A stretch of DNA of 64,000 nucleotides from contig JBLYPX010000001.1 of assembly GCA_048538235.1 (NCBI GenBank), forward strand, positions 264,013 through 328,012, in the 5' to 3' direction. Positions 963-63,557 of the stretch are shown piece by piece. The notes under the pieces were generated by a model that made no database searches, had not been told where the DNA came from, and saw only the letters and a list, made by a program, of their open reading frames with translations. The position numbers and the translations under genes are program-made. Position 1 is the first letter of the stretch. Every line of letters starts with the position of its first letter. The stretch comes from Candidatus Komeilibacteria bacterium (GTDB taxonomy: Bacteria; Patescibacteriota; Patescibacteriia; UBA1558).

Positions 963-2328
963 GTTTAATTAATGTATATGATTCATTTGAATCATTAACA
1001 GTATATCCTTTATTTTCAATTTCATTTCTTAATTCATCTGCACGTGCCCAGTCTTTATTATTCTTTGCTTCTAAACGCATATCTGCTAATTTAATAATCT
1101 CTGCAGGAATTTTTACAGCTTTAGCACTTTTTAAATTAAGACCAAGCACTTCATCCATTTTAAGGATAGTGGCTTTTTTATCTTTATCTTCAATATTATC
1201 TTTTAATAAATCCCAAACAAGAGCTAAGGCCTTAGGAATATTTAAATCATTATTAATACTATCTGTAAACTTATCTATATATTCTTTATTAACCTTTCCT
1301 TTACCTTTAATACTAGCAATACGGTTTGTTAATTTATTTAAAGCAGATTGTGCAGCATTTAAAGCATCCCAAGAAAATTCTAAATGTTTAGAATAATGTG
1401 TTTGTAATGTTAAATATCTAAAGGCTAGGGGATTAATATTCTTTTTAATTAAATCATCTACAGTAATTGTTTCACCCGCTGACTTGGACATTTTACCTTC
1501 ACGCATAATTAAATGCTCAAAGTGTATCCAGTAATTTGCCATTTTTTTATCGTGTGCTGCTTCAGATTGAGCAATTTCATTAGTGTGATGTATTGGAATA
1601 TGCTCAATACCACCAGTATGAATGTCAAAAGGTTGTCCTAGTAAATCTGTTGAGATGACCGAACATTCTAAATGCCAACCAGGAAAGCCCATGCCCCAAG
1701 GTGAATTCCATTCCATGTCCCTTTGTTTGTCCTGTGGAGAGAATTTCCAAACAGCAAAGTCTGTAGAATTTTTCTTATCTGCCATTTCAATCCTAGCGCC
1801 AGCTTTTAACCCTGTGAGATCTTGTCCAGTTAGCTTGCCATAGTCTTTAAGTTTAGAAGTATCAAAATACAAACCATCTTTAGTTTTGTAAATATATCCT
1901 TTTTTTTCTAATTCCTTAACTAAATCTATTTGCTCCTTTATACAAGATGTTGCTCTTACATATTTATTCGGTGGTAATATATTTAATTTATCGCTATACC
2001 TTTTAAATATATCTGTATAAAATTTTGCAATATCCCAAGCAGATTTATTTTCTTTATCCTTAGCTTTTTCTAATTTATCTTCGCCAGTATCTCCGTCAGA
2101 TGTTAAATGACCAACATCTGTAATATTCATAATATGTTTAACTTTATACCCATTAAAGATAAACATGCGTTTAAGTAAGTCATTCATAATATATGATCGC
2201 ATATTGCCAATATGTGGGTAATCGTAAACTGTTGGACCACAAGAATAAAAGCCAACCCTATTTTTTTTAACAGGCTTAAACTCTTCTTTTTTCTTAGATA
2301 ATGTATTATTTAAATATATTTTATCCAT
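955..2328 (-). CDS. cysS: cysteinyl-tRNA synthetase
   Basis: Class I aaRS with the HIGH-region 'CGPTVYDYPHIGN' and a KMSKS motif. Length is about 457 aa. Confidence 0.93.
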   Translation of the reverse strand: MDKIYLNNTLSKKKEEFKPVKKNRVGFYSCGPTVYDYPHIGNMRSYIMNDLLKRMFIFNGYKVKHIMNITDVGHLTSDGDTGEDKLEKAKDKENKSAWDIAKFYTDIFKRYSDKLNILPPNKYVRATSCIKEQIDLVKELEKKGYIYKTKDGLYFDTSKLKDYGKLTGQDLTGLKAGARIEMADKKNSTDFAVWKFSPQDKQRDMEWNSPWGMGFPGWHLECSVISTDLLGQPFDIHTGGIEHIPIHHTNEIAQSEAAHDKKMANYWIHFEHLIMREGKMSKSAGETITVDDLIKKNINPLAFRYLTLQTHYSKHLEFSWDALNAAQSALNKLTNRIASIKGKGKVNKEYIDKFTDSINNDLNIPKALALVWDLLKDNIEDKDKKATILKMDEVLGLNLKSAKAVKIPAEIIKLADMRLEAKNNKDWARADELRNEIENKGYTVNDSNESYTLIKHD

Positions 2329-2390: not shown

Positions 2391-3317
2391 TTAAAGCCAT
2401 CTTTTACGTTTAAAATAATAGGCAAGAATTAGCATAAAGGTTGCCATAGCCCCTATTAATATCCAAAAACCATAAGGATGTTTAACAAGAGGCATGAATA
2501 CGGAATTCATTCCAAAGATTGAAGCCATAAGGTTAGCAGGAACAATAATAACAGAAATAACTGTTAATATTTTCATAATATCGTTTAACCTGAAAGATAT
2601 TAATGATTCATTGGTACTGTGTAAAGCTTCAATCGTTTCTCTGTGGTTATTCAATATATCCCAAATATCTTTTGTTTGTTCAAGTATATTTGCATAGTAA
2701 GTATCTATACTAGTTGGAATAAAGTATTTAGTATTTTTAGACATCAACTTCTTAATAACATTTTTATGGGCCTGCATTATCTTTCTGAAGTTTACAATAT
2801 TTCTTCTAACGATTAATATCTTTTCTACCATTTCTCTTTCATAACCCTCAAAGATACCTTTTTCTAGGAAGTCAATATCATCGCTGATGTGATCTAGCAT
2901 TGGAAAACAATACTCTTGTAGTCTGTTCAGTATCTCATAAAGCAATTTAGTAGGATTACCTTGCATGAATTTCTCACGCATTGTGTCATTTAGCTGACAT
3001 TGTTCAAAAAACTTTGTTAAAGGAGATAATTTATCTTTATTAACAGTTATTAAATACTCTGGACCAATAAAAAAGTTTACCTCTGCTGAAACAATTTCTT
3101 TTTTCTCCGGTACATAAATAGGGAAGGTGAGAATTAAAAATATATAGCTATGGTACTCATCTAGCTTTGGTCTTTGTGAAGGAGATAAACAATCTTCAAT
3201 GTCCAATGGATGAAAATCGTAATTCTCTCTTAAGTATTCAGCTTCAGAAGCCTCAAACTTATTGAAGTGTATCCAAGTAAGTCTGTTTGTTTTTATTTTA
3301 TTAACTGCGTTTAACAT
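2391..3317 (-). CDS. corA: CorA-family Mg2+/Co2+ transporter
   Basis: C-terminal two-TM region containing the signature 'GMN' motif ('IFGMNSVFMP'). Confidence 0.85.
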   Translation of the reverse strand: MLNAVNKIKTNRLTWIHFNKFEASEAEYLRENYDFHPLDIEDCLSPSQRPKLDEYHSYIFLILTFPIYVPEKKEIVSAEVNFFIGPEYLITVNKDKLSPLTKFFEQCQLNDTMREKFMQGNPTKLLYEILNRLQEYCFPMLDHISDDIDFLEKGIFEGYEREMVEKILIVRRNIVNFRKIMQAHKNVIKKLMSKNTKYFIPTSIDTYYANILEQTKDIWDILNNHRETIEALHSTNESLISFRLNDIMKILTVISVIIVPANLMASIFGMNSVFMPLVKHPYGFWILIGAMATFMLILAYYFKRKRWL

Positions 3318-3382
3318 AGCAATATTATACCATAATTTTACAAAGTCTTAAAAAAGTTGTGTTTTTTTGGTATAATATATGC

Positions 3383-6596: not shown

Positions 6597-7175
6597 ATGG
6601 AAGATGAAATAAAACAAAACAATCAGGATCAAGACATTGATCAAGAAGCAGTAAATGGAATCCAGTTAACTTTAGATAAAATTGAGTCTGAATTACAGAG
6701 AATAAAGTTAGAGTTATCTAAAGCAGGATTAACAACAGGCAGGAGTCCAGATTTTTCACCTAAGTTAAAGGAGTTAAGTGAAGAGATTACAGAGGATGAA
6801 AAGATAGTAGAGGGTGTATTTGATGGACAACAGATGATAGGGCCAGACGGTAAGAGATATTCCATACCTGCAAACTATATTTCTAAATCTAAATTAGTTG
6901 AGGGAGATATTTTAAAATTAAGAATTAGCGGCGATGGGTCGTTTATATACAAACAAATCGGACCAGTAGATAGGGATAGAAAAGTTGGTAAGCTGATCAA
7001 GGATGAAGAAGGTAATTATGGTGTAATGGTGGGTAATAAGTTGTATAAAGTGATAGTAGCAGCTGTAACATATTTCCATGGCTCAGAAGGTGAAGAAGCA
7101 GTTATTTTGGTACCAAAAGATACTGAAAGTCAGTGGGCTGCTATTGAGAATGTTATTAAATCTTCAAGCTCATAA
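6597..7175 (+). CDS. hypothetical protein (acidic N-terminus, KOW-like C-terminal segment)
   Basis: 192-aa ORF preceded by an AT-rich intergenic region. No confident family assignment. Confidence 0.5.
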   Translation: MEDEIKQNNQDQDIDQEAVNGIQLTLDKIESELQRIKLELSKAGLTTGRSPDFSPKLKELSEEITEDEKIVEGVFDGQQMIGPDGKRYSIPANYISKSKLVEGDILKLRISGDGSFIYKQIGPVDRDRKVGKLIKDEEGNYGVMVGNKLYKVIVAAVTYFHGSEGEEAVILVPKDTESQWAAIENVIKSSSS

Positions 7176-7196
7176 TTTTTACAATATTTATATATT

Positions 7197-7225
7197 AAAA
7201 GTCGGGAATGTCCCGACTTTTAATT
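7197..7225 (+). terminator. rho-independent terminator
   Basis: Perfect hairpin AAAAGTCGGGA-atg-TCCCGACTTTT followed by T-rich sequence. Confidence 0.75.
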
Positions 7226-7266
7226 TTATAAAATATTTGCTACAATACGAATGCTAATTTCAATAT

Positions 7267-8880
7267 ATGCAGTCAAAAGAAACACTATATAATAAGTACA
7301 GACCTTCAACATTTGCTGATGTGGTTAACCAAAATCACATTAAGATTACGCTGCAAAATGAGGTGTCTAATAATAAGCTAGCTCACGCCTATATTTTTAA
7401 TGGACCAAGAGGTATTGGTAAAACAACCATTGCTAGACTACTTGCTAAAGTTGTTAACTGTGAAAATAGAAAAGAAGGGGAGTCAGAACCTTGTAACAAA
7501 TGCGAAGCGTGTAAAGAAGTAGATAGTGGAAAATCTTTATCTATGGTTGAAATAGATGCTGCTTCACAGACTAAGGTTGATCAAACAAGGGAAAATATTA
7601 TTGCTGCCTCTAGAATTTCTGCAAGCTCAGGTAAGACAAAGGTGTTTATTATAGATGAAGTACATATGTTATCTACAGCTTCATTTAATGCCTTACTTAA
7701 AACACTAGAAGAACCACCAGCTAAGGTTCTTTTTATTTTAGCTACTACTGAAATACATAAGGTACCAGAAACAATTATTTCACGTTGCCAGAGATTTGAT
7801 TACCATCGTTTATCTGTTACAGATCTTACTTCCTGGATGGAAGATATTTGTAAACAAGAAAAACGTGAAGTAAGTAAAGATGTTTTGCAAGCAATTGCTA
7901 AACAAGCAGATGGTGGTGCTAGAGATGCTTTAAGTATATTAGGCCAGGTTTTAACTTTATCTGAAGAAAAAATTAACTTTGATCATGCTTCACTAGTATT
8001 ACCAAGATCAGATATAAGGATAGTTTCAGATTTAACAGATTTTGTTATTAAAAGATCAGCAGCTGATGGTATTAATCTATTAAACAAATCTCTAATGGAA
8101 GGAGTTGATCTAAATCAATTAACAATGGATTGGATAGATTATCTACGTCAGTTATTATTATTTAAACTAGCCGCAGATAATAAGATACTACAGAATAATT
8201 TTGACAAAGAAGTGCAGAAAAAAATGACTTCTCAAACAGAACTTGTCTCTTCAGATCGTATAGTATTTATGTTAGATACATTATTACTTAAGTTTCAGCA
8301 GATTAAATTATCTTCTATACCACATCTGCCAATTGAATTAGCTATTGTAATAATGTGTGGAGAAGGGTTAGATATACCCCAGCCTCCTAAACAGGAAAAA
8401 CCAAAACAAGATAATATAGATCAACCAAAACAAGAAAAGCCTAAACAGGAAATACCTGAGATTAAGAGTGAAAAAGTGCCTGATCCGCCACCAGCTGTTA
8501 AGTCTAATTTAAAGCTAGACGATATCCAGCCGAAATGGCTGGACATTTTAATTGCATTGAAGGAATATAACCATTCTTTATCTGCTTTAATGAAAGTAGC
8601 AAGACCAGTTAGTTTTGAAAACAATATTTTAACATTTGGTTTTGAATATTCTTTTCATAGTGAAGTTTTAGCAGATGCTAATAAAAGACACGCCTTAGAA
8701 GAAATTATTAGTAAGCATTTAGGTGAAAAAATATCTATTGAAGGTATAGTTGATGAAGATTATAATAAAAGAAATGTTTGGCAAGTATTTATTGAAGAAG
8801 AAGCACCTATTGAAGAAAAACAAGAAGAAAAGCCAATTGAGCAAGACGTAGAGGTTGACGTCGCGGCTGCTTTTGGTTAA
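7267..8880 (+). CDS. dnaX: DNA polymerase III subunit gamma/tau
   Basis: N-terminal 'YRPSTFADVVNQ...', P-loop 'GPRGIGKTT', clamp-loader AAA+ boxes. Low-complexity PKQEKPKQ repeats in the linker. Confidence 0.92.
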   Translation: MQSKETLYNKYRPSTFADVVNQNHIKITLQNEVSNNKLAHAYIFNGPRGIGKTTIARLLAKVVNCENRKEGESEPCNKCEACKEVDSGKSLSMVEIDAASQTKVDQTRENIIAASRISASSGKTKVFIIDEVHMLSTASFNALLKTLEEPPAKVLFILATTEIHKVPETIISRCQRFDYHRLSVTDLTSWMEDICKQEKREVSKDVLQAIAKQADGGARDALSILGQVLTLSEEKINFDHASLVLPRSDIRIVSDLTDFVIKRSAADGINLLNKSLMEGVDLNQLTMDWIDYLRQLLLFKLAADNKILQNNFDKEVQKKMTSQTELVSSDRIVFMLDTLLLKFQQIKLSSIPHLPIELAIVIMCGEGLDIPQPPKQEKPKQDNIDQPKQEKPKQEIPEIKSEKVPDPPPAVKSNLKLDDIQPKWLDILIALKEYNHSLSALMKVARPVSFENNILTFGFEYSFHSEVLADANKRHALEEIISKHLGEKISIEGIVDEDYNKRNVWQVFIEEEAPIEEKQEEKPIEQDVEVDVAAAFG

Positions 8881-8892
8881 TATATTTGTTGA

Positions 8893-8966
8893 TCGGAGGT
8901 CGTCTAATGGTAGGACAGCTGGTTCTGGTCCAGCCAATTGGGGTTCGAATCCCTGCCTCCGAACCA
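8893..8966 (+). tRNA. tRNA-Gln (anticodon CTG), CCA encoded
   Basis: 7-bp acceptor TCGGAGG/CCTCCGA; anticodon stem GCTGG/CCAGC with loop TTCTGGT; T-arm GGGGTTCGAATCCC; 3' ACCA. Confidence 0.85.
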
Positions 8967-37984: not shown

Positions 37985-38059
37985 GCCGCTATCGTCTAAC
38001 GGTTAGGACGTCAGATTCTCAATCTGGTAATCGGGGTTCGATTCCCCGTAGCGGTACCA
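37985..38059 (+). tRNA. tRNA, probably Glu (anticodon CTC), CCA encoded
   Basis: Acceptor GCCGCTA/TAGCGGT (G1-U72); D-arm GTC..GAC; anticodon stem TCAGA/TCTGG with loop TTCTCAA; T-arm CGGGGTTCGATTCCCCG; ACCA. Confidence 0.7.
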
Positions 38060-60506: not shown

Positions 60507-60728
60507 ATGAATATGAACAAGGCAGCTTGGAGTTGCATAATGATCGTTATTGGTCTCGTGGTAATTGACGGAAGTTTTGGTCAGTACGTAACTGAACTGT
60601 TCGGTCAATCGATTGGCCAATTGATTCGTCTTGCTCTCGTTGGAATTATGGGAATATCTTGCTGGTTTCTGTTCAGAAACTATTCAAAATTTCTCAAAGA
60701 CCAACCAAAACCCTTCCCGAAGAATTAA
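60507..60728 (+). CDS. small two-TM peptide P1 (73 aa)
   Basis: SD GGAGAG plus 5 nt before the ATG. Two hydrophobic helices and a basic C-terminus. A 9-bp hairpin overlaps the stop. Confidence 0.55.
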   Translation: MNMNKAAWSCIMIVIGLVVIDGSFGQYVTELFGQSIGQLIRLALVGIMGISCWFLFRNYSKFLKDQPKPFPKN

Positions 60729-60737
60729 CTTCGGGAA
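60714..60737 (+). other. stem-loop without U-tract (TTCCCGAAG-aattaa-CTTCGGGAA)
   Basis: Perfect 9-bp hairpin overlapping the P1 stop, immediately followed by the 51-bp repeat. Confidence 0.7.
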
Positions 60738-60740
60738 CCT

Positions 60741-60791
60741 CCCAAGTCTAGTACTTAGGTAATAGATTTAGGAAGTAATTTGTACATTGAA
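60741..60791 (+). repeat. 51-bp direct repeat, copy 1 (leader of P2)
   Basis: Identical to 61080-61130: cccaagtctagtacttaggtaatagatttaggaagtaatttgtacattgaa. Confidence 0.9.
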
Positions 60792-60812
60792 CGTAAATAG
60801 AAAGGATTTGTT

Positions 60813-61037
60813 ATGAAAACAAATTTGCAAGTAGCACTTGTTGGCTGCATAGCAGTAATTATCGGCTGTGTTATTGCCACAGTTAATGGTATCAAGTATT
60901 TGGAGGATAGTTCCTGGAAAATGCCATCAGGTGATGCAGGTGTTGTCACGATAGCAATGTTGTTGGGATTGATCATGATCTTCTATGGAATATTTAAACA
61001 GCTTCGTGAGGAGAATAAAACTCACGACATTAACTAG
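60813..61037 (+). CDS. small two-TM peptide P2 (74 aa)
   Basis: SD AAAGGA 8 nt before the ATG; start about 21 nt after the repeat. Two TM helices and a charged C-terminus. Confidence 0.55.
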   Translation: MKTNLQVALVGCIAVIIGCVIATVNGIKYLEDSSWKMPSGDAGVVTIAMLLGLIMIFYGIFKQLREENKTHDIN

Positions 61038-61048
61038 TTCCTGTTCTT

Positions 61049-61075
61049 CCCAGAAACAGATAATCGTATTCTGGG
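61049..61075 (+). other. stem-loop without U-tract (CCCAGAA...TTCTGGG)
   Basis: 7-bp stem with 13-nt loop, directly followed by repeat copy 2. Confidence 0.6.
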
Positions 61076-61079
61076 ACTC

Positions 61080-61130
61080 CCCAAGTCTAGTACTTAGGTA
61101 ATAGATTTAGGAAGTAATTTGTACATTGAA
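61080..61130 (+). repeat. 51-bp direct repeat, copy 2 (leader of P3)
   Basis: Identical to 60741-60791. Confidence 0.9.
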
Positions 61131-61150
61131 TTTAAATATAAGAGGTAAGA

Positions 61151-61315
61151 GATGAAACGTTTAATGATTTTTTTGATGATTTTGGCAATTGGTGCTCTGT
61201 ATGTCGGTTATGACCATTTAATGGGTCAGTTAACGAAAGAAATGCTTTTCATTGATGTTTTAGCAAGCTTGATTGCTGCGACAGTAATATCTCTTACCGC
61301 AAAGGTAGAAAAGTA
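61151..61315 (+). CDS. small two-TM peptide P3 (54 aa; below the ORF-track cutoff)
   Basis: ATG 61151 preceded by AAGAGG. Translates to MKRLMIFLMILAIGALYVGYDHLMGQLTKEMLFIDVLASLIAATVISLTAKVEK. A 9-bp hairpin (61322-61349) follows. Confidence 0.45.
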
Positions 61316-61503
61316 ATCTATCCCTAGCTGGTTATCATAACAGCTAGGGGAACATCTTAAATATATTAAATGTTTAGTATATTTAAAATGTTTTTTGAAA
61401 ATAGATGTAGACTTTGTAAATTTGGAGATTGGAGTCGGATATAATTTAAAACATATAAATATTCATATCCATCGCTCTAGTCTCCAGTTTTACAAAGTTT
61501 AAC

Positions 61504-61602
61504 TTAATTCTAATTGTAGTAGGGTTATAATAATAATGAATTCGGTATAGTCCTCGTGGCGAAAATTGAGTTTGTGCATAGCCCTATTACAATTAGAATT
61601 AA
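61504..61602 (+). repeat. 21-bp inverted repeat flanking a 57-nt loop
   Basis: Arms TTAATTCTAATTGTAGTAGGG (61504-61524) and CCCTATTACAATTAGAATTAA (61582-61602). A perfect RNA duplex with one G-U pair. MITE-like or processing hairpin. Confidence 0.8.
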
Positions 61603-61607
61603 TATAT

Positions 61608-61688
61608 GGCAGTGCAGTCTGAAAGAATGCCAGGGGCAGCCTGAATAAGGTTAGACTGTAGACGGAGGTTCGATTCCTTCCATTGCCG
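61608..61688 (+). ncRNA. tRNA-like element (T-arm plus acceptor-like stem) of uncertain identity; not a canonical tRNA
   Basis: T-arm GGAGG-TTCGATT-CCTTC (61664-61680). GGCAGTG (61608-61614) can pair with CATTGCC (61681-61687). No anticodon arm could be folded. A weak terminator follows at 61700-61728. Confidence 0.35.
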
Positions 61689-61699
61689 CAACAGCAAAT

Positions 61700-61728
61700 A
61701 AAGGAGAGAATAATTTCTCTCCTTTATC
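61700..61728 (+). terminator. terminator-like hairpin after the tRNA-like element
   Basis: AAAGGAGAG-aataattt-CTCTCCTTT followed by TTTATC. Confidence 0.55.
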
Positions 61729-61732
61729 TACC

Positions 61733-61761
61733 TTGACAGTAATTTGAAATATTATAAAATT
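61733..61761 (+). promoter_or_regulatory. sigma70-like promoter of the murJ leader
   Basis: TTGACA then A/T-rich -10 region (TATTATAAAAT). Confidence 0.45.
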
Positions 61762-61787
61762 ACAGTGGTAATAAAGTATTTGTTGCC

Positions 61788-61905
61788 AAAAAGCTGTGCC
61801 CTTATTGAAGGCTGAATTATAGTTTTTTTACCCACATAACTGTGCGGTAACTCTCTCCTAAAAGAAGACTATAACTCATGCAATCCTCTCAGTGGGGCAC
61901 AGCTT
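61788..61905 (+). promoter_or_regulatory. structured 5' leader of murJ with a 14-bp long-range helix ending in a U-tract (attenuator or riboswitch candidate)
   Basis: AAAAAGCTGTGCCC (61788-61801) pairs with GGGCACAGCTTTTT (61885-61898), enclosing about 83 nt, then TTTTTGTTTTATTT. About 60 nt further on is the murJ ATG. Confidence 0.4.
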
Positions 61906-61964
61906 TTTGTTTTATTTAAGTATCTAGACAAATACCTTAAAATAGCGTATAATTCTATCGTTTT

Positions 61965-63557
61965 ATGTTTAATAAAATTTGGAACAAATTAATAACAACA
62001 GTTACCGGTGGGGCAGTTTTGATTGCCTTTTTTTCTATTCTTGCAAAATTGGTTGGTTTATTAAGAGATAGAATATTAGCAAGTACATTTGGTGCTGGTA
62101 GAACTTTGGATATATATTATGCTAGTTTTCGTTTGCCAGACTTTATTTTTAACACTTTGGTGCTTGGTGCATTAGCTGCCGCTTTTATTCCAGTCTTTAT
62201 TAGACTATGGGATATAGATAAGAATAAGGCTTATGAACTAGTCAATATTGTTATAACTAAACTAGTTATTATTTTAAGTTTATTAGCTGTCATTGCAATA
62301 ATTTTTGCACCATCAATTGTTGGTGTGCTTGCACCTGGTTTTGATCTTGCTAGTCAACAACAAACAGTTACCTTAACTAGAATAATGCTGATTAGTATTA
62401 TTTTCTTTGGTATTAGTAATGTGTTTTCTGGAACATTAAATGCTTGGAGAGATTTTGTACCATATGCGATTGCTCCAATATTCTATAATGTTGGAATTAT
62501 AGTTGGTGTTTTATTGCTATACCCAAGCTTTGGTTTAAAAGGATTAGCTAGTGGTGTTGTTTTGGGATCTATATTACATCTTTTAACTCAATATCCATCA
62601 GTACGTAAGCATGGTTGGAAGTACGGGTTTACAGTTAAAAATACAGTTGAGACAACTAGAATGTTTTGGTTGATGCTTCCTAGGACAATTGGTCTAGCTG
62701 CTAACCAAATAAACCAAGTGGTTATTACTTCTATTGCTTCAACTTTAACAATTGGTAGTATTGCTGTATTTAATTTAGCTTCTAATTTACAAAGTTTTCC
62801 AATTTCAATATTTGGTCTATCCTTTGCTATTGCAGCCTTTCCAGTTATGTCCAGAGCTTGTACAAGTGAAAACAAACAAGACTTTAGAGGTAGTTTTTCT
62901 ATAACCTTCAGAAGAATACTTTTTTTCATAATTCCAATTTCTGTTTTAATCTTAGTGCTGCGTGCTCAGATTGTTCGTGTGGTATTAGGAGCTGGTGTTT
63001 TTGATTGGGAAGATACATATTTTACAGCTCAGATACTAGGTGTCTTTTCTATCTCTTTATTTGCTCAAGGAACAATACCGTTACTAGCTAGAGCTTTCTA
63101 TGCCTTTGAAAACACTGTAATACCAGTTGCAATTGGTATTGTGAGTGTAATTATTAATATTGTTTTGTCTATATATTTATCTCCTTCAATGGGGATTATT
63201 GGTTTAGGTGTAGCTTTTACAGTAGCTAATATTGTAAATATGTTAGCTCTACTTATTGTGTTAAGAGAAAGAGTTGGAGATCTGGATGATAAAACAATAA
63301 TTAAATCTGTATTTAAGATAAGTATTAATTCTATCCTAGCTGGTCTTACAACCTATGGACTATTAAACTTAATAGCGCCAGCTGTAAATATGCAAAGCTT
63401 TTTAGGTATATTTATTCAAGCATTACTAGCAGGAATTGGTGGTATGATTGTTTACTTCCTACTTTCTGCTTTTACAAATATGTCAGAGATGAAAGTTATT
63501 ACAGATTTTGTTAGGTCATATATTAAACCTTTATTAAAGAGAAATGGATCAGTCTAA
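61965..63557 (+). CDS. murJ: lipid II flippase MurJ (MviN)
   Basis: 14-TM protein; N-terminal '[20 protein letters not shown]...[13 protein letters not shown]' MurJ signature. Confidence 0.9.

Follow-up and report, generated by a model that had tools for sequence, protein, structure and literature searches.

Few transfer RNA (tRNA) mimics have a defined job, and each of those that do, transfer-messenger RNA (tmRNA), the bacterial Y RNAs and the viral tRNA-like ends, showed a re-use of the tRNA machinery. The tag-less tmRNA of jakobid mitochondria is similar in size to the element described below, and the mascRNA behind MALAT1 is a small tRNA-like RNA located directly 3′ of a larger structured non-coding RNA (ncRNA), where its release by RNase P can define the 3′ end of the upstream RNA. 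In the YrlA RNA of Mycobacterium smegmatis, the 7-bp acceptor stem of the tRNA-like domain is enough for RNase P, and CCA is added in vivo (PMC4201824). Here we describe an 81-nucleotide (nt) element at 61608-61688, plus strand, of a 64,000-nt stretch from a Candidatus Komeilibacteria bacterium (contig JBLYPX010000001.1, positions 264,013 to 328,012), called the window throughout. The element combines a 7-bp acceptor stem and a canonical T-arm with a non-tRNA body, and it is probably a tRNA-derived, non-decoding tRNA mimic that is matured like a tRNA. We consider it very likely that this is a real, selected, non-decoding tRNA-like RNA and reasonably likely that its maturation is of the tRNA type, while any single downstream function would be a doubtful assignment.

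Architecture of the tRNA-like element

Nine Komeilibacteria-type lineages were compared at this site (the window, L001, L003, L004, L005, L009, L037, L039, and L040), with the syntenic loci collected through homologues of the window MurJ. The core alignment contains six copies, five from Komeilibacteria-type lineages and one from the outlier L026, with the form found in L037 set apart. The 7-bp acceptor, 5-bp T stem, and 7-nt TΨC-type loop of a canonical tRNA are all present (Table 1). In the window the acceptor stem contains a single G-U pair, at 5:68, and its two strands stand in standard order 66 nt apart. All six core copies share a common layout in which the 7-bp acceptor is followed by 0-2 nt, a helix P2 of 6-7 bp, an A-rich strand, hairpin A (4-5 bp, with a loop that always contains GG), and hairpin B, which begins with CC, ends with GG, and has 3-4 bp and a 4-5-nt loop. 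After the P2 3′ strand come a 2-6-nt linker, the T-arm, the acceptor 3′ strand, and a purine discriminator. The window contains a single copy of the element.

A preliminary description of this locus had reported the T-arm, the acceptor pairing, an inverted repeat upstream, and a hairpin downstream, all of which were found where it had placed them. It had also failed to fold an anticodon arm, and we could draw none either. An anticodon arm with a 5-bp stem and a 7-nt loop carrying U33 and an anticodon is absent from every copy, and the internal loops of the copies are 3-5 nt long and not conserved. Manual folding as a cloverleaf, a class II tRNA, a tRNA-Sec, or an allo-tRNA (8/4, 9/3) gave no register with an anticodon arm, and an intron-containing tRNA was rejected because 81 nt leaves no room for an intron. 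ARAGORN calls neither a tRNA nor a tmRNA at the element, and in the window it calls only a tRNA-Gln and a tRNA-Glu. Rfam release 15, run at its gathering thresholds (29 bits for tRNA, RF00005, and 47 bits for tmRNA), returns the same two tRNAs (56-64 bits) in the window and nothing in the region of the element. In E-value mode the Rfam tRNA model aligns end to end with 61608-61688 at 24.5 bits, with matches only in the acceptor stem and the T-arm. With an E value of 0.011 after correction for 4227 families, the match exceeds chance but does not make the element a tRNA.

Table 1. Positions of the tRNA-like element, its parts, and the flanking elements in the window
Feature	Position	Strand	Basis
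hp1, long imperfect hairpin, first module of a putative ~320-nt transcript	61408..61501	+	inverted repeat, minimum free energy (MFE) fold
hp2, ~100-nt hairpin; arms 61504-61528 / 61578-61602	61504..61602	+	inverted repeat, MFE fold
Possible internal promoter TTGAGT-16-TACAAT in the hp2 3′ arm	61566..61593	+	9/12 positions; weak
Acceptor 5′ strand GGCAGUG	61608..61614	+	pairs with CAUUGCC; Rfam tRNA model alignment
Body replacing the D and anticodon arms	61615..61658	+	predicted fold and covariation
Helix P2	61615-61620 with 61653-61658	+	6/6 pairs change on both sides
A-rich strand	61621-61627	+	predicted fold
Hairpin A, GG loop	61628-61638	+	4/4 pairs change on both sides
Hairpin B, 5-nt loop	61640-61650	+	predicted fold
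5-nt linker at the variable-loop position	61659..61663	+	covariance-model alignments
T-arm GGAGG-TTCGATT-CCTTC, 5-bp stem, UUCGAUU loop	61664..61680	+	4/5 stem pairs covary
Acceptor 3′ strand CAUUGCC and discriminator G	61681..61688	+	CATTGCC at 61681-61687; no encoded CCA, CAAC next
Intrinsic-terminator-like hairpin, ends UUUAUCU	61698..61731	+	perfect 13-bp stem 61698-61727

The acceptor stem, the T-arm, the helix that replaces the anticodon stem, and the lack of an anticodon would also fit a tmRNA serving in ribosome rescue, either in reduced form or as a tag-less tRNA-like domain of the jakobid mitochondrial type. The best Rfam match of another, distinct tRNA-like RNA that shares the acceptor (L028/L011) is tmRNA, at 25 bits, and the models of two clan mates overlap in the window below threshold. 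Even so, a tmRNA of this kind, which the preliminary description had offered as one option, is extremely improbable. Pair 3:70 is C-G in all six aligned copies and in L037, so that the G3-U70 alanine determinant of tmRNA is missing, and the discriminator in the window is G. The 0-1 nt that separate the acceptor stem from P2 offer no D-loop analogue; the segment GGAGATTGGAGTCGGAT at 61423-61439, once compared with the 5′ D-analogue of tmRNA, is nothing but the 5′ arm of hp1, a hairpin upstream of the element. With both acceptor strands within 81 nt there is no room for an mRNA-like domain or pseudoknots, and the element is not a permuted two-piece form. The mini open reading frame (ORF) that had been likened to a tmRNA tag, AVQSERMPGAA followed by a stop, does exist in the window, but it starts at base 2 of the acceptor stem and thus overlaps it. 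In L001 the frame differs in both sequence and length, and L004, L005, L026, and L040 have nothing equivalent. ARAGORN is negative, all scores lie below the Rfam tmRNA gathering score, and close relatives can live without the element.

Three Daviesbacteria metagenome-assembled genomes (MAGs) and two MAGs labelled Gammaproteobacteria carry real tRNA-Met(CAU) genes with exactly the same acceptor, GGCAGUG/CAUUGCC, and the T-arm of the window element is almost the same as theirs. The shared acceptor and near-identical T-arm point, on sequence grounds, to descent from a tRNA of the tRNA-Met(CAU) type. These tRNA-Met(CAU) genes (L013, L015, L016, L017, and L019) form one identical sequence family that includes G5-U68, and the bins labelled Gammaproteobacteria may contain contigs from the Candidate Phyla Radiation (CPR). 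Rfam 15 contains no family for the tRNA-like element, and a full-text search of the literature yielded no account of a tRNA-like RNA from CPR, Patescibacteria, or Komeilibacteria. Judged by these comparisons, the element is a previously undescribed tRNA mimic, nearest in architecture to the tRNA-like domain of tmRNA and nearest in sequence to tRNA-Met(CAU).

Covariation supports a selected RNA fold

A MAFFT alignment of five copies placed the 3′ strand of P2 out of register, and covariance-model alignments were used in its place. In the model-guided alignment of the six copies, 96% of cells are paired and 15 of the 25 pairs carry changes on both sides, counts that are biased towards the structure since the n = 6 sequences were aligned to a model of it. 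None of 500 shuffles reached the observed value on any of five measures, and sliding the partners by 1-3 columns reduced pairing to 30-57% of cells. Compensatory changes occur in five helices, with P2, hairpin A, and the T stem covarying as listed in Table 1. The solutions found for P2 are visibly independent of one another (CAGUCU/AGACUG, CCGUUC/GAACGG, UUAUCC/GGAUAA, CUCGGC/GCCGAG, and UGUCAU/AUGACG). The acceptor sequence is nearly fixed, with five of its seven pairs invariant in the six aligned copies, and its single G-U pair swaps between 5:68 and 4:69 (A-U/G-U, G-U/G-C, or G-C/G-U in L037). A covariance model built from the six copies, R2, scores members at 65-89 bits and everything else at no more than 39 bits, including real tRNAs with an identical acceptor stem. 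These comparisons show purifying selection on the fold in one unrelated organism and at least five Komeilibacteria-type lineages.

These data bear on the possibility that the element is a decaying pseudogene of a tRNA-Met(CAU)-type tRNA that has lost its D and anticodon arms. Such an origin would account for an acceptor stem and T-arm almost identical to those of real CPR tRNA-Met(CAU) genes, for a tRNA-model score below threshold, for the lack of an encoded CCA unlike local tRNAs, and for repeated loss among relatives. However, 96% pairing and double changes in 15 of 25 pairs, across lineages in which MurJ is only 67-89% identical, do not come from neutral decay and therefore argue that this is not a decaying pseudogene. 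The same non-tRNA body also recurs in the unrelated genome L026, in what looks like an expressed gene. Decay, which the preliminary description had listed as a decayed tRNA gene, is largely refuted by the covariation and is in our view very unlikely. The alternative raised there, a tRNA-derived and non-canonical tRNA-like ncRNA, is supported by the compensatory changes and by the stand-alone gene in L026.

Conservation and distribution of the element

The element occupies one and the same position, between DUF4012 and murJ, in six of the nine Komeilibacteria-type lineages. Beside the window, syntenic copies are found in L001/L012, L004/L014, L005, L040, and L037. The entire intergenic region of L001 is 83% identical to that of the window (MurJ, 89%); in the other lineages with the element, MurJ identity to the window is 68% (L005), 67% (L004), 69% (L040), and 73% (L037). 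L003 and L009, which have no element, retain hp1, hp2, and the terminator, and in L039 the whole RNA region is missing along with the element. In a neighbour-joining tree of MurJ the element is present in both subclades, and the simplest history, on these sequences, would be ancestral presence followed by at least three losses, with the element as an accessory component.

The pattern GGCAGTG..GTTCRAYTC....CATTGCC was also run over collections of genome, metagenome, and viral contigs. The pattern is too strict and missed acceptor variants such as GGCGGTG, which were found by synteny instead. The scans added L012 and L014, species representatives of the same lineages, and the outlier L026. This seventh copy lies on an unrelated contig of 48% GC, adjoins an M16 peptidase gene, and has the same architecture. 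It is a stand-alone gene with TTGACA-17-TATATT six nt upstream of G1, a G-CCA 3′ end, and a terminator of its own. Other matches were mostly real tRNA-Met(CAU) genes, phage tRNAs (L031, a tRNA-Ile(UAU)), odd tRNA-like sequences, and chance matches. Among the odd tRNA-like sequences (L011/L021/L028, L020/L029, L022, L030/L034, L032, and L033/L035), several (L011/L021/L028, L020/L029, L022, and L032), like the phage tRNAs, share the acceptor but not the body and are not members as judged by R2; all of these other matches, the chance ones (L018/L027 and L023-25) included, score no higher with R2 than ordinary tRNAs.

The patchy presence and absence at one site could reflect conservation at the level of DNA, with the element marking where an integrative element aimed at tRNA-type genes attaches or has left a scar. 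A same-acceptor tRNA-like sequence in L028 does adjoin a large serine recombinase flanked by 137-nt inverted repeats. Around the window copy, however, there are no integrase or mobile genes, and alignment of filled and empty sites, inspected by eye, showed no target duplication. A DNA site would also leave the covariation of the RNA helices and the conserved G-U pairs unexplained, and we regard this explanation as highly improbable.

The element follows two conserved hairpins

The segment 61400-61735 (336 nt) folds with z = -11 against shuffles into hp1, hp2, the tRNA-like element, and a terminal hairpin. Hairpin hp1 is conserved in L001, L003, L004, L005, and L009, with a 3-nt bulge, CC-AUC-GC, kept. 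Across lineages hp1 shows an invariant asymmetry, in which (A/G)GUCGG in the 5′ arm stands opposite CC-AUC-GCU with its AUC bulge; as a sequence feature, this asymmetric bulge looks like a protein-binding site. The base of hp2 is the 21-bp inverted repeat of the preliminary description, 61504-61524 / 61582-61602, which extends to 25-nt arms with 92% complementarity. Its 57-nt loop is itself paired, and the apical part is conserved (AGUCC..GUGGCGAAAAU). In hp2, 13 of 34 pairs show compensatory double changes among seven lineages, and seven lineages retain hp1 and hp2 as structures, L009 with a wholly different sequence. For both hairpins the plus strand folds better than the minus strand by 4-27 kcal/mol, and in the inverted repeat of hp2 G-U pairs are the cause. 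The strand bias and the covariation therefore identify hp1 and hp2 as plus-strand RNA hairpins of about 30 nearly continuous bp each, and the modelled duplexes make them plausible candidate substrates of RNase III, in keeping with one of the readings that the preliminary description gave for the repeat. The repeat itself was thus real, but its reading as a miniature inverted-repeat transposable element (MITE) did not hold, as only its own two arms match in the 64 kb, and it is a single-copy sequence with a fixed position, covariation, and no target duplication. The YrlA motif GNCGAAN0-1G in the hp2 loop was also considered; by eye, it is not conserved in the alignment.

The spacer between hp2 and the tRNA-like element is 5 nt. 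The hairpin downstream of the element, correctly predicted earlier, is terminator-like (Table 1), and its U-tract lies partly inside the stem, which is why the consensus scan does not list it. In every lineage an equivalent hairpin with UUUU(U)AU comes after the element or, in its absence, after hp2. At the 5′ side, the weak promoter described previously, TTGAAA-16-TAAATT at 61395-61422, matches at 9 of 12 positions, a level of agreement reached no more often here than in shuffled sequence. From the alignment, read by eye, we propose a candidate promoter with -35 TTAGTA (61374-61379), -10 GAAAAT (61397-61402), and a start at the first base of hp1. The possible internal promoter in the 3′ arm of hp2 lies 14 nt upstream of the element; it is identical in L001 and not recognisable in L004 or L005. 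A promoter upstream of the element is seen only in the window and L001 and is thus not a consistent feature of the lineages.

This arrangement raises the possibility that the element is only an RNase P 'punctuation' mark, a module that forms the 3′ end of hp1-hp2 and stabilises it, with the released piece having no function. It would then be comparable to the mascRNA of MALAT1 or to tRNAs that serve as processing signals. The element lies directly 3′ of hp2 and 5′ of the shared terminator, L003 and L009 retain hp1, hp2, and the terminator without it, and RNase P cleavage of a tRNA-like domain with a 7-bp acceptor has precedent (PMC4201824). It would further agree with a role of this type that only the acceptor stem and T-arm, a minimal RNase P substrate, are strongly conserved and that the body in L037 is restructured. 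Yet the L026 copy stands alone with a promoter, a terminator, and CCA, and has nothing upstream to process. In the body, both Komeilibacteria and L026 have kept P2, the A-rich strand, hairpin A, the GG loop, and the CC/GG of hairpin B, and the near-invariant acceptor sequence is not an RNase P requirement. The stand-alone L026 gene, the conserved features of the body, and the near-fixed acceptor speak more for an independent role than for a processing signal alone, and we judge the punctuation explanation to be unlikely.

Proposed maturation and role

In the pathway that we favour for this tRNA mimic, the element would be transcribed together with hp1-hp2 or from the weak internal promoter. 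RNase P would cut at G1 (G61608), freeing an hp1-hp2 RNA with a defined 3′ end, after which the 3′ trailer would be trimmed and CCA added where it is not encoded. The mature RNA of ~81-84 nt would act through its acceptor/T-arm end, and no codon could read it. What is kept is a coaxial acceptor/T-arm minihelix, with the 7-bp acceptor, the 5-bp T stem, the UUCGAUU loop, and a purine discriminator. One possible role is that of a dedicated acceptor-end substrate, perhaps charged with an amino acid for a purpose outside the ribosome; another is to serve as the ligand or decoy of a protein that binds tRNA acceptor stems.

Several points weigh against this interpretation, in addition to the bias of the pair counts. 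The transcript ends and the RNase P cleavage are ones that we infer, and examination of the sequence identified no partner protein or target for the element. The positional homologue in L037 has a restructured body of 104 nt, so that the body is less constrained than the ends, and the absence of the element from L003 (MurJ 80%), L009 (68%), and L039 indicates that it is dispensable. Real tRNA genes encode the 3′ CCA in all 14 examined, 13 from Komeilibacteria-type lineages (window 8893-8966 and 37985-38059, and L001, L003, L004, L005, L007, and L009 near 6900-8200) and the tRNA-Lys of L028. The Komeilibacteria copies of the element instead have a conserved CAAC or CAAT, and encoded CCA is present in the tRNA-like sequences of L026 and L011. 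The missing CCA weakens the case for aminoacylation, unless the cell has a CCA-adding enzyme. Across copies the discriminator is either G or A, an unusual variation for an RNA with a single aminoacylation identity. The varying discriminator and the CAAC in place of CCA argue against simple aminoacylation.

A more specific version of charging would make the element a dedicated anticodon-less 'top-half' tRNA of some CPR bacteria, matured by RNase P and CCA addition and charged via its fixed acceptor. The conserved G-U at 5:68 or 4:69 would then be part of the acceptor used for charging. The RNA might serve as an amino-acid donor for modification of the cell envelope or of peptides, or as a tag-less ligand of the ribosome or of a tRNA enzyme, and without an anticodon it would be insulated from translation. 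We rate this version as rather improbable.

Gene context and a second small RNA

The intergenic region at 61317-61964 (650 nt) contains no ORF of 40 or more amino acids in an ORF scan and is flanked by an ORF for a 54-residue hydrophobic protein and by murJ (61965-63557), whose product matches a Komeilibacteria protein at NCBI, encoded on an 860-kb contig, with 100% identity. The gene order, HtrA-like protease, DUF4012, small ORFs, murJ, lepA, and divIC, is kept in relatives. Upstream of the RNA cluster, at 60507-61316, lie three consecutive small hydrophobic ORFs (73, 74, and 54 residues), the number and sizes of which differ among relatives at the same position. Two more hairpins precede hp1, at 61324-61392. 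One, right after the 54-residue ORF, is terminator-like (CCCTAGCTG...CAGCTAGGG); the other is an AT-rich hairpin with 20-nt arms at 61351-61392 and shows compensatory changes in L005. With these additional hairpins, the entire 650-nt intergenic region is a chain of structured elements.

A second small-RNA gene at 61733-61915 (RNA 61787-61915) is better conserved than the tRNA-like element. It has a near-consensus promoter, TTGACA-16-TAAAAT at 61733-61760, and encodes a rod-like hairpin of ~125 nt, whose closing stem has 15 bp (61787-61801 / 61895-61909) and after which comes a U-run. Its invariant strands include UUGAAGGCUGAAUU and CAUGCAAUCCUCUCAG, and a loop contains the CU-rich ACUCUCUCCU. 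This RNA has no Rfam match and is kept in eight lineages, including those that have no tRNA-like element. It is not a murJ leader, since the gene that comes after it in L004 is another one.

Some contigs returned by the acceptor pattern have features of their own. In L028, 1450-3324 (the same sequence occurs in L011 and L021), a 540-residue large serine recombinase is flanked by 137-nt inverted repeats with 89% complementarity, which begin inside the 3′ part of a tRNA-Lys (1500-1574, plus strand) and of an 81-nt ACCA-ending tRNA-like sequence (3244-3324, minus strand). This segment may be invertible or mobile, swapping tRNA 3′ ends. Two of these three assemblies break ~80 nt beyond the tRNA-like sequence, and its best Rfam match, tmRNA at 25 bits, is below threshold. 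L032 (847-933) carries a tRNA-Met-like gene with a normal acceptor, D-arm, CUCAUUA loop, and T-arm and ~15 extra nt on the 5′ side of the anticodon stem; ARAGORN makes no call on it. In the phage contig L031 (469-797), a class-II-like tRNA-Ile(UAU) with the same acceptor and a 5-nt D-loop ends an array of four tRNAs, and L033 and L035, jumbo-phage contigs of 350-450 kb, contain an uncalled 77-nt tRNA-like sequence with the same acceptor.

Comparison with known systems

The tRNA-like domain of tmRNA (Rfam clan CL00001) resembles the element in its 7-bp acceptor, its canonical T-arm, and its lack of an anticodon, and in both a helix at the place of the anticodon stem is joined to the T-arm by a short linker resembling a variable loop. 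Unlike tmRNA, the element has C-G at 3:70, a G/A discriminator, no D-loop analogue, no tag ORF, and no pseudoknots; it is missed by ARAGORN and by the Rfam tmRNA models, and close relatives do without it. With the tRNA-Met(CAU) of Daviesbacteria the element shares an identical acceptor, a nearly identical T-arm (GGAGG-UUCGAYU-CCUYC), and a terminator after the gene, and a D-arm in miniature is suggested by hairpin A and its GG loop. It departs from a canonical tRNA in that it has no anticodon arm or 7-nt anticodon loop, in that the extra helix P2 encloses the D-like hairpin, and in its score (24.5 bits against a threshold of 29) and lack of an encoded CCA.

YrlA is likewise a non-decoding bacterial ncRNA that imitates the acceptor, T, and D part of a tRNA (PMC4201824). 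It is permuted: the 5′ and 3′ ends of YrlA form the Ro-binding stem where a tRNA has its anticodon stem, and a loop closes the 'acceptor', whereas the ends of the window element form the acceptor stem. Rfam gives no YrlA or Y RNA match for the element, and YrlA genes adjoin rsr (Ro60), while the annotated neighbours here (HtrA-like protease, DUF4012, small ORFs, MurJ, and LepA) do not include Ro60.

The element occurs in genome-reduced, host-dependent CPR bacteria and retains the part of a tRNA that is recognised by RNase P, the CCA-adding enzyme, aminoacyl-tRNA synthetases, and EF-Tu, discarding the part that is decoded by the ribosome. It shares its 650-nt intergenic region, in a very compact genome, with several uncharacterised structured RNAs (hp1, hp2, and the RNA at 61787-61915). 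Charging, or binding by a specific factor, would make it a new example of the tRNA scaffold at work outside translation. Were it no more than a processing handle, it would be a bacterial counterpart of the MALAT1-mascRNA arrangement, with which it shares a position directly 3′ of a larger structured RNA and possible release by RNase P. The mascRNA-type modules are eukaryotic or viral, and mascRNA forms a cloverleaf with the stub of an anticodon arm; the element differs from them in having a stand-alone copy and a body under selection of its own.

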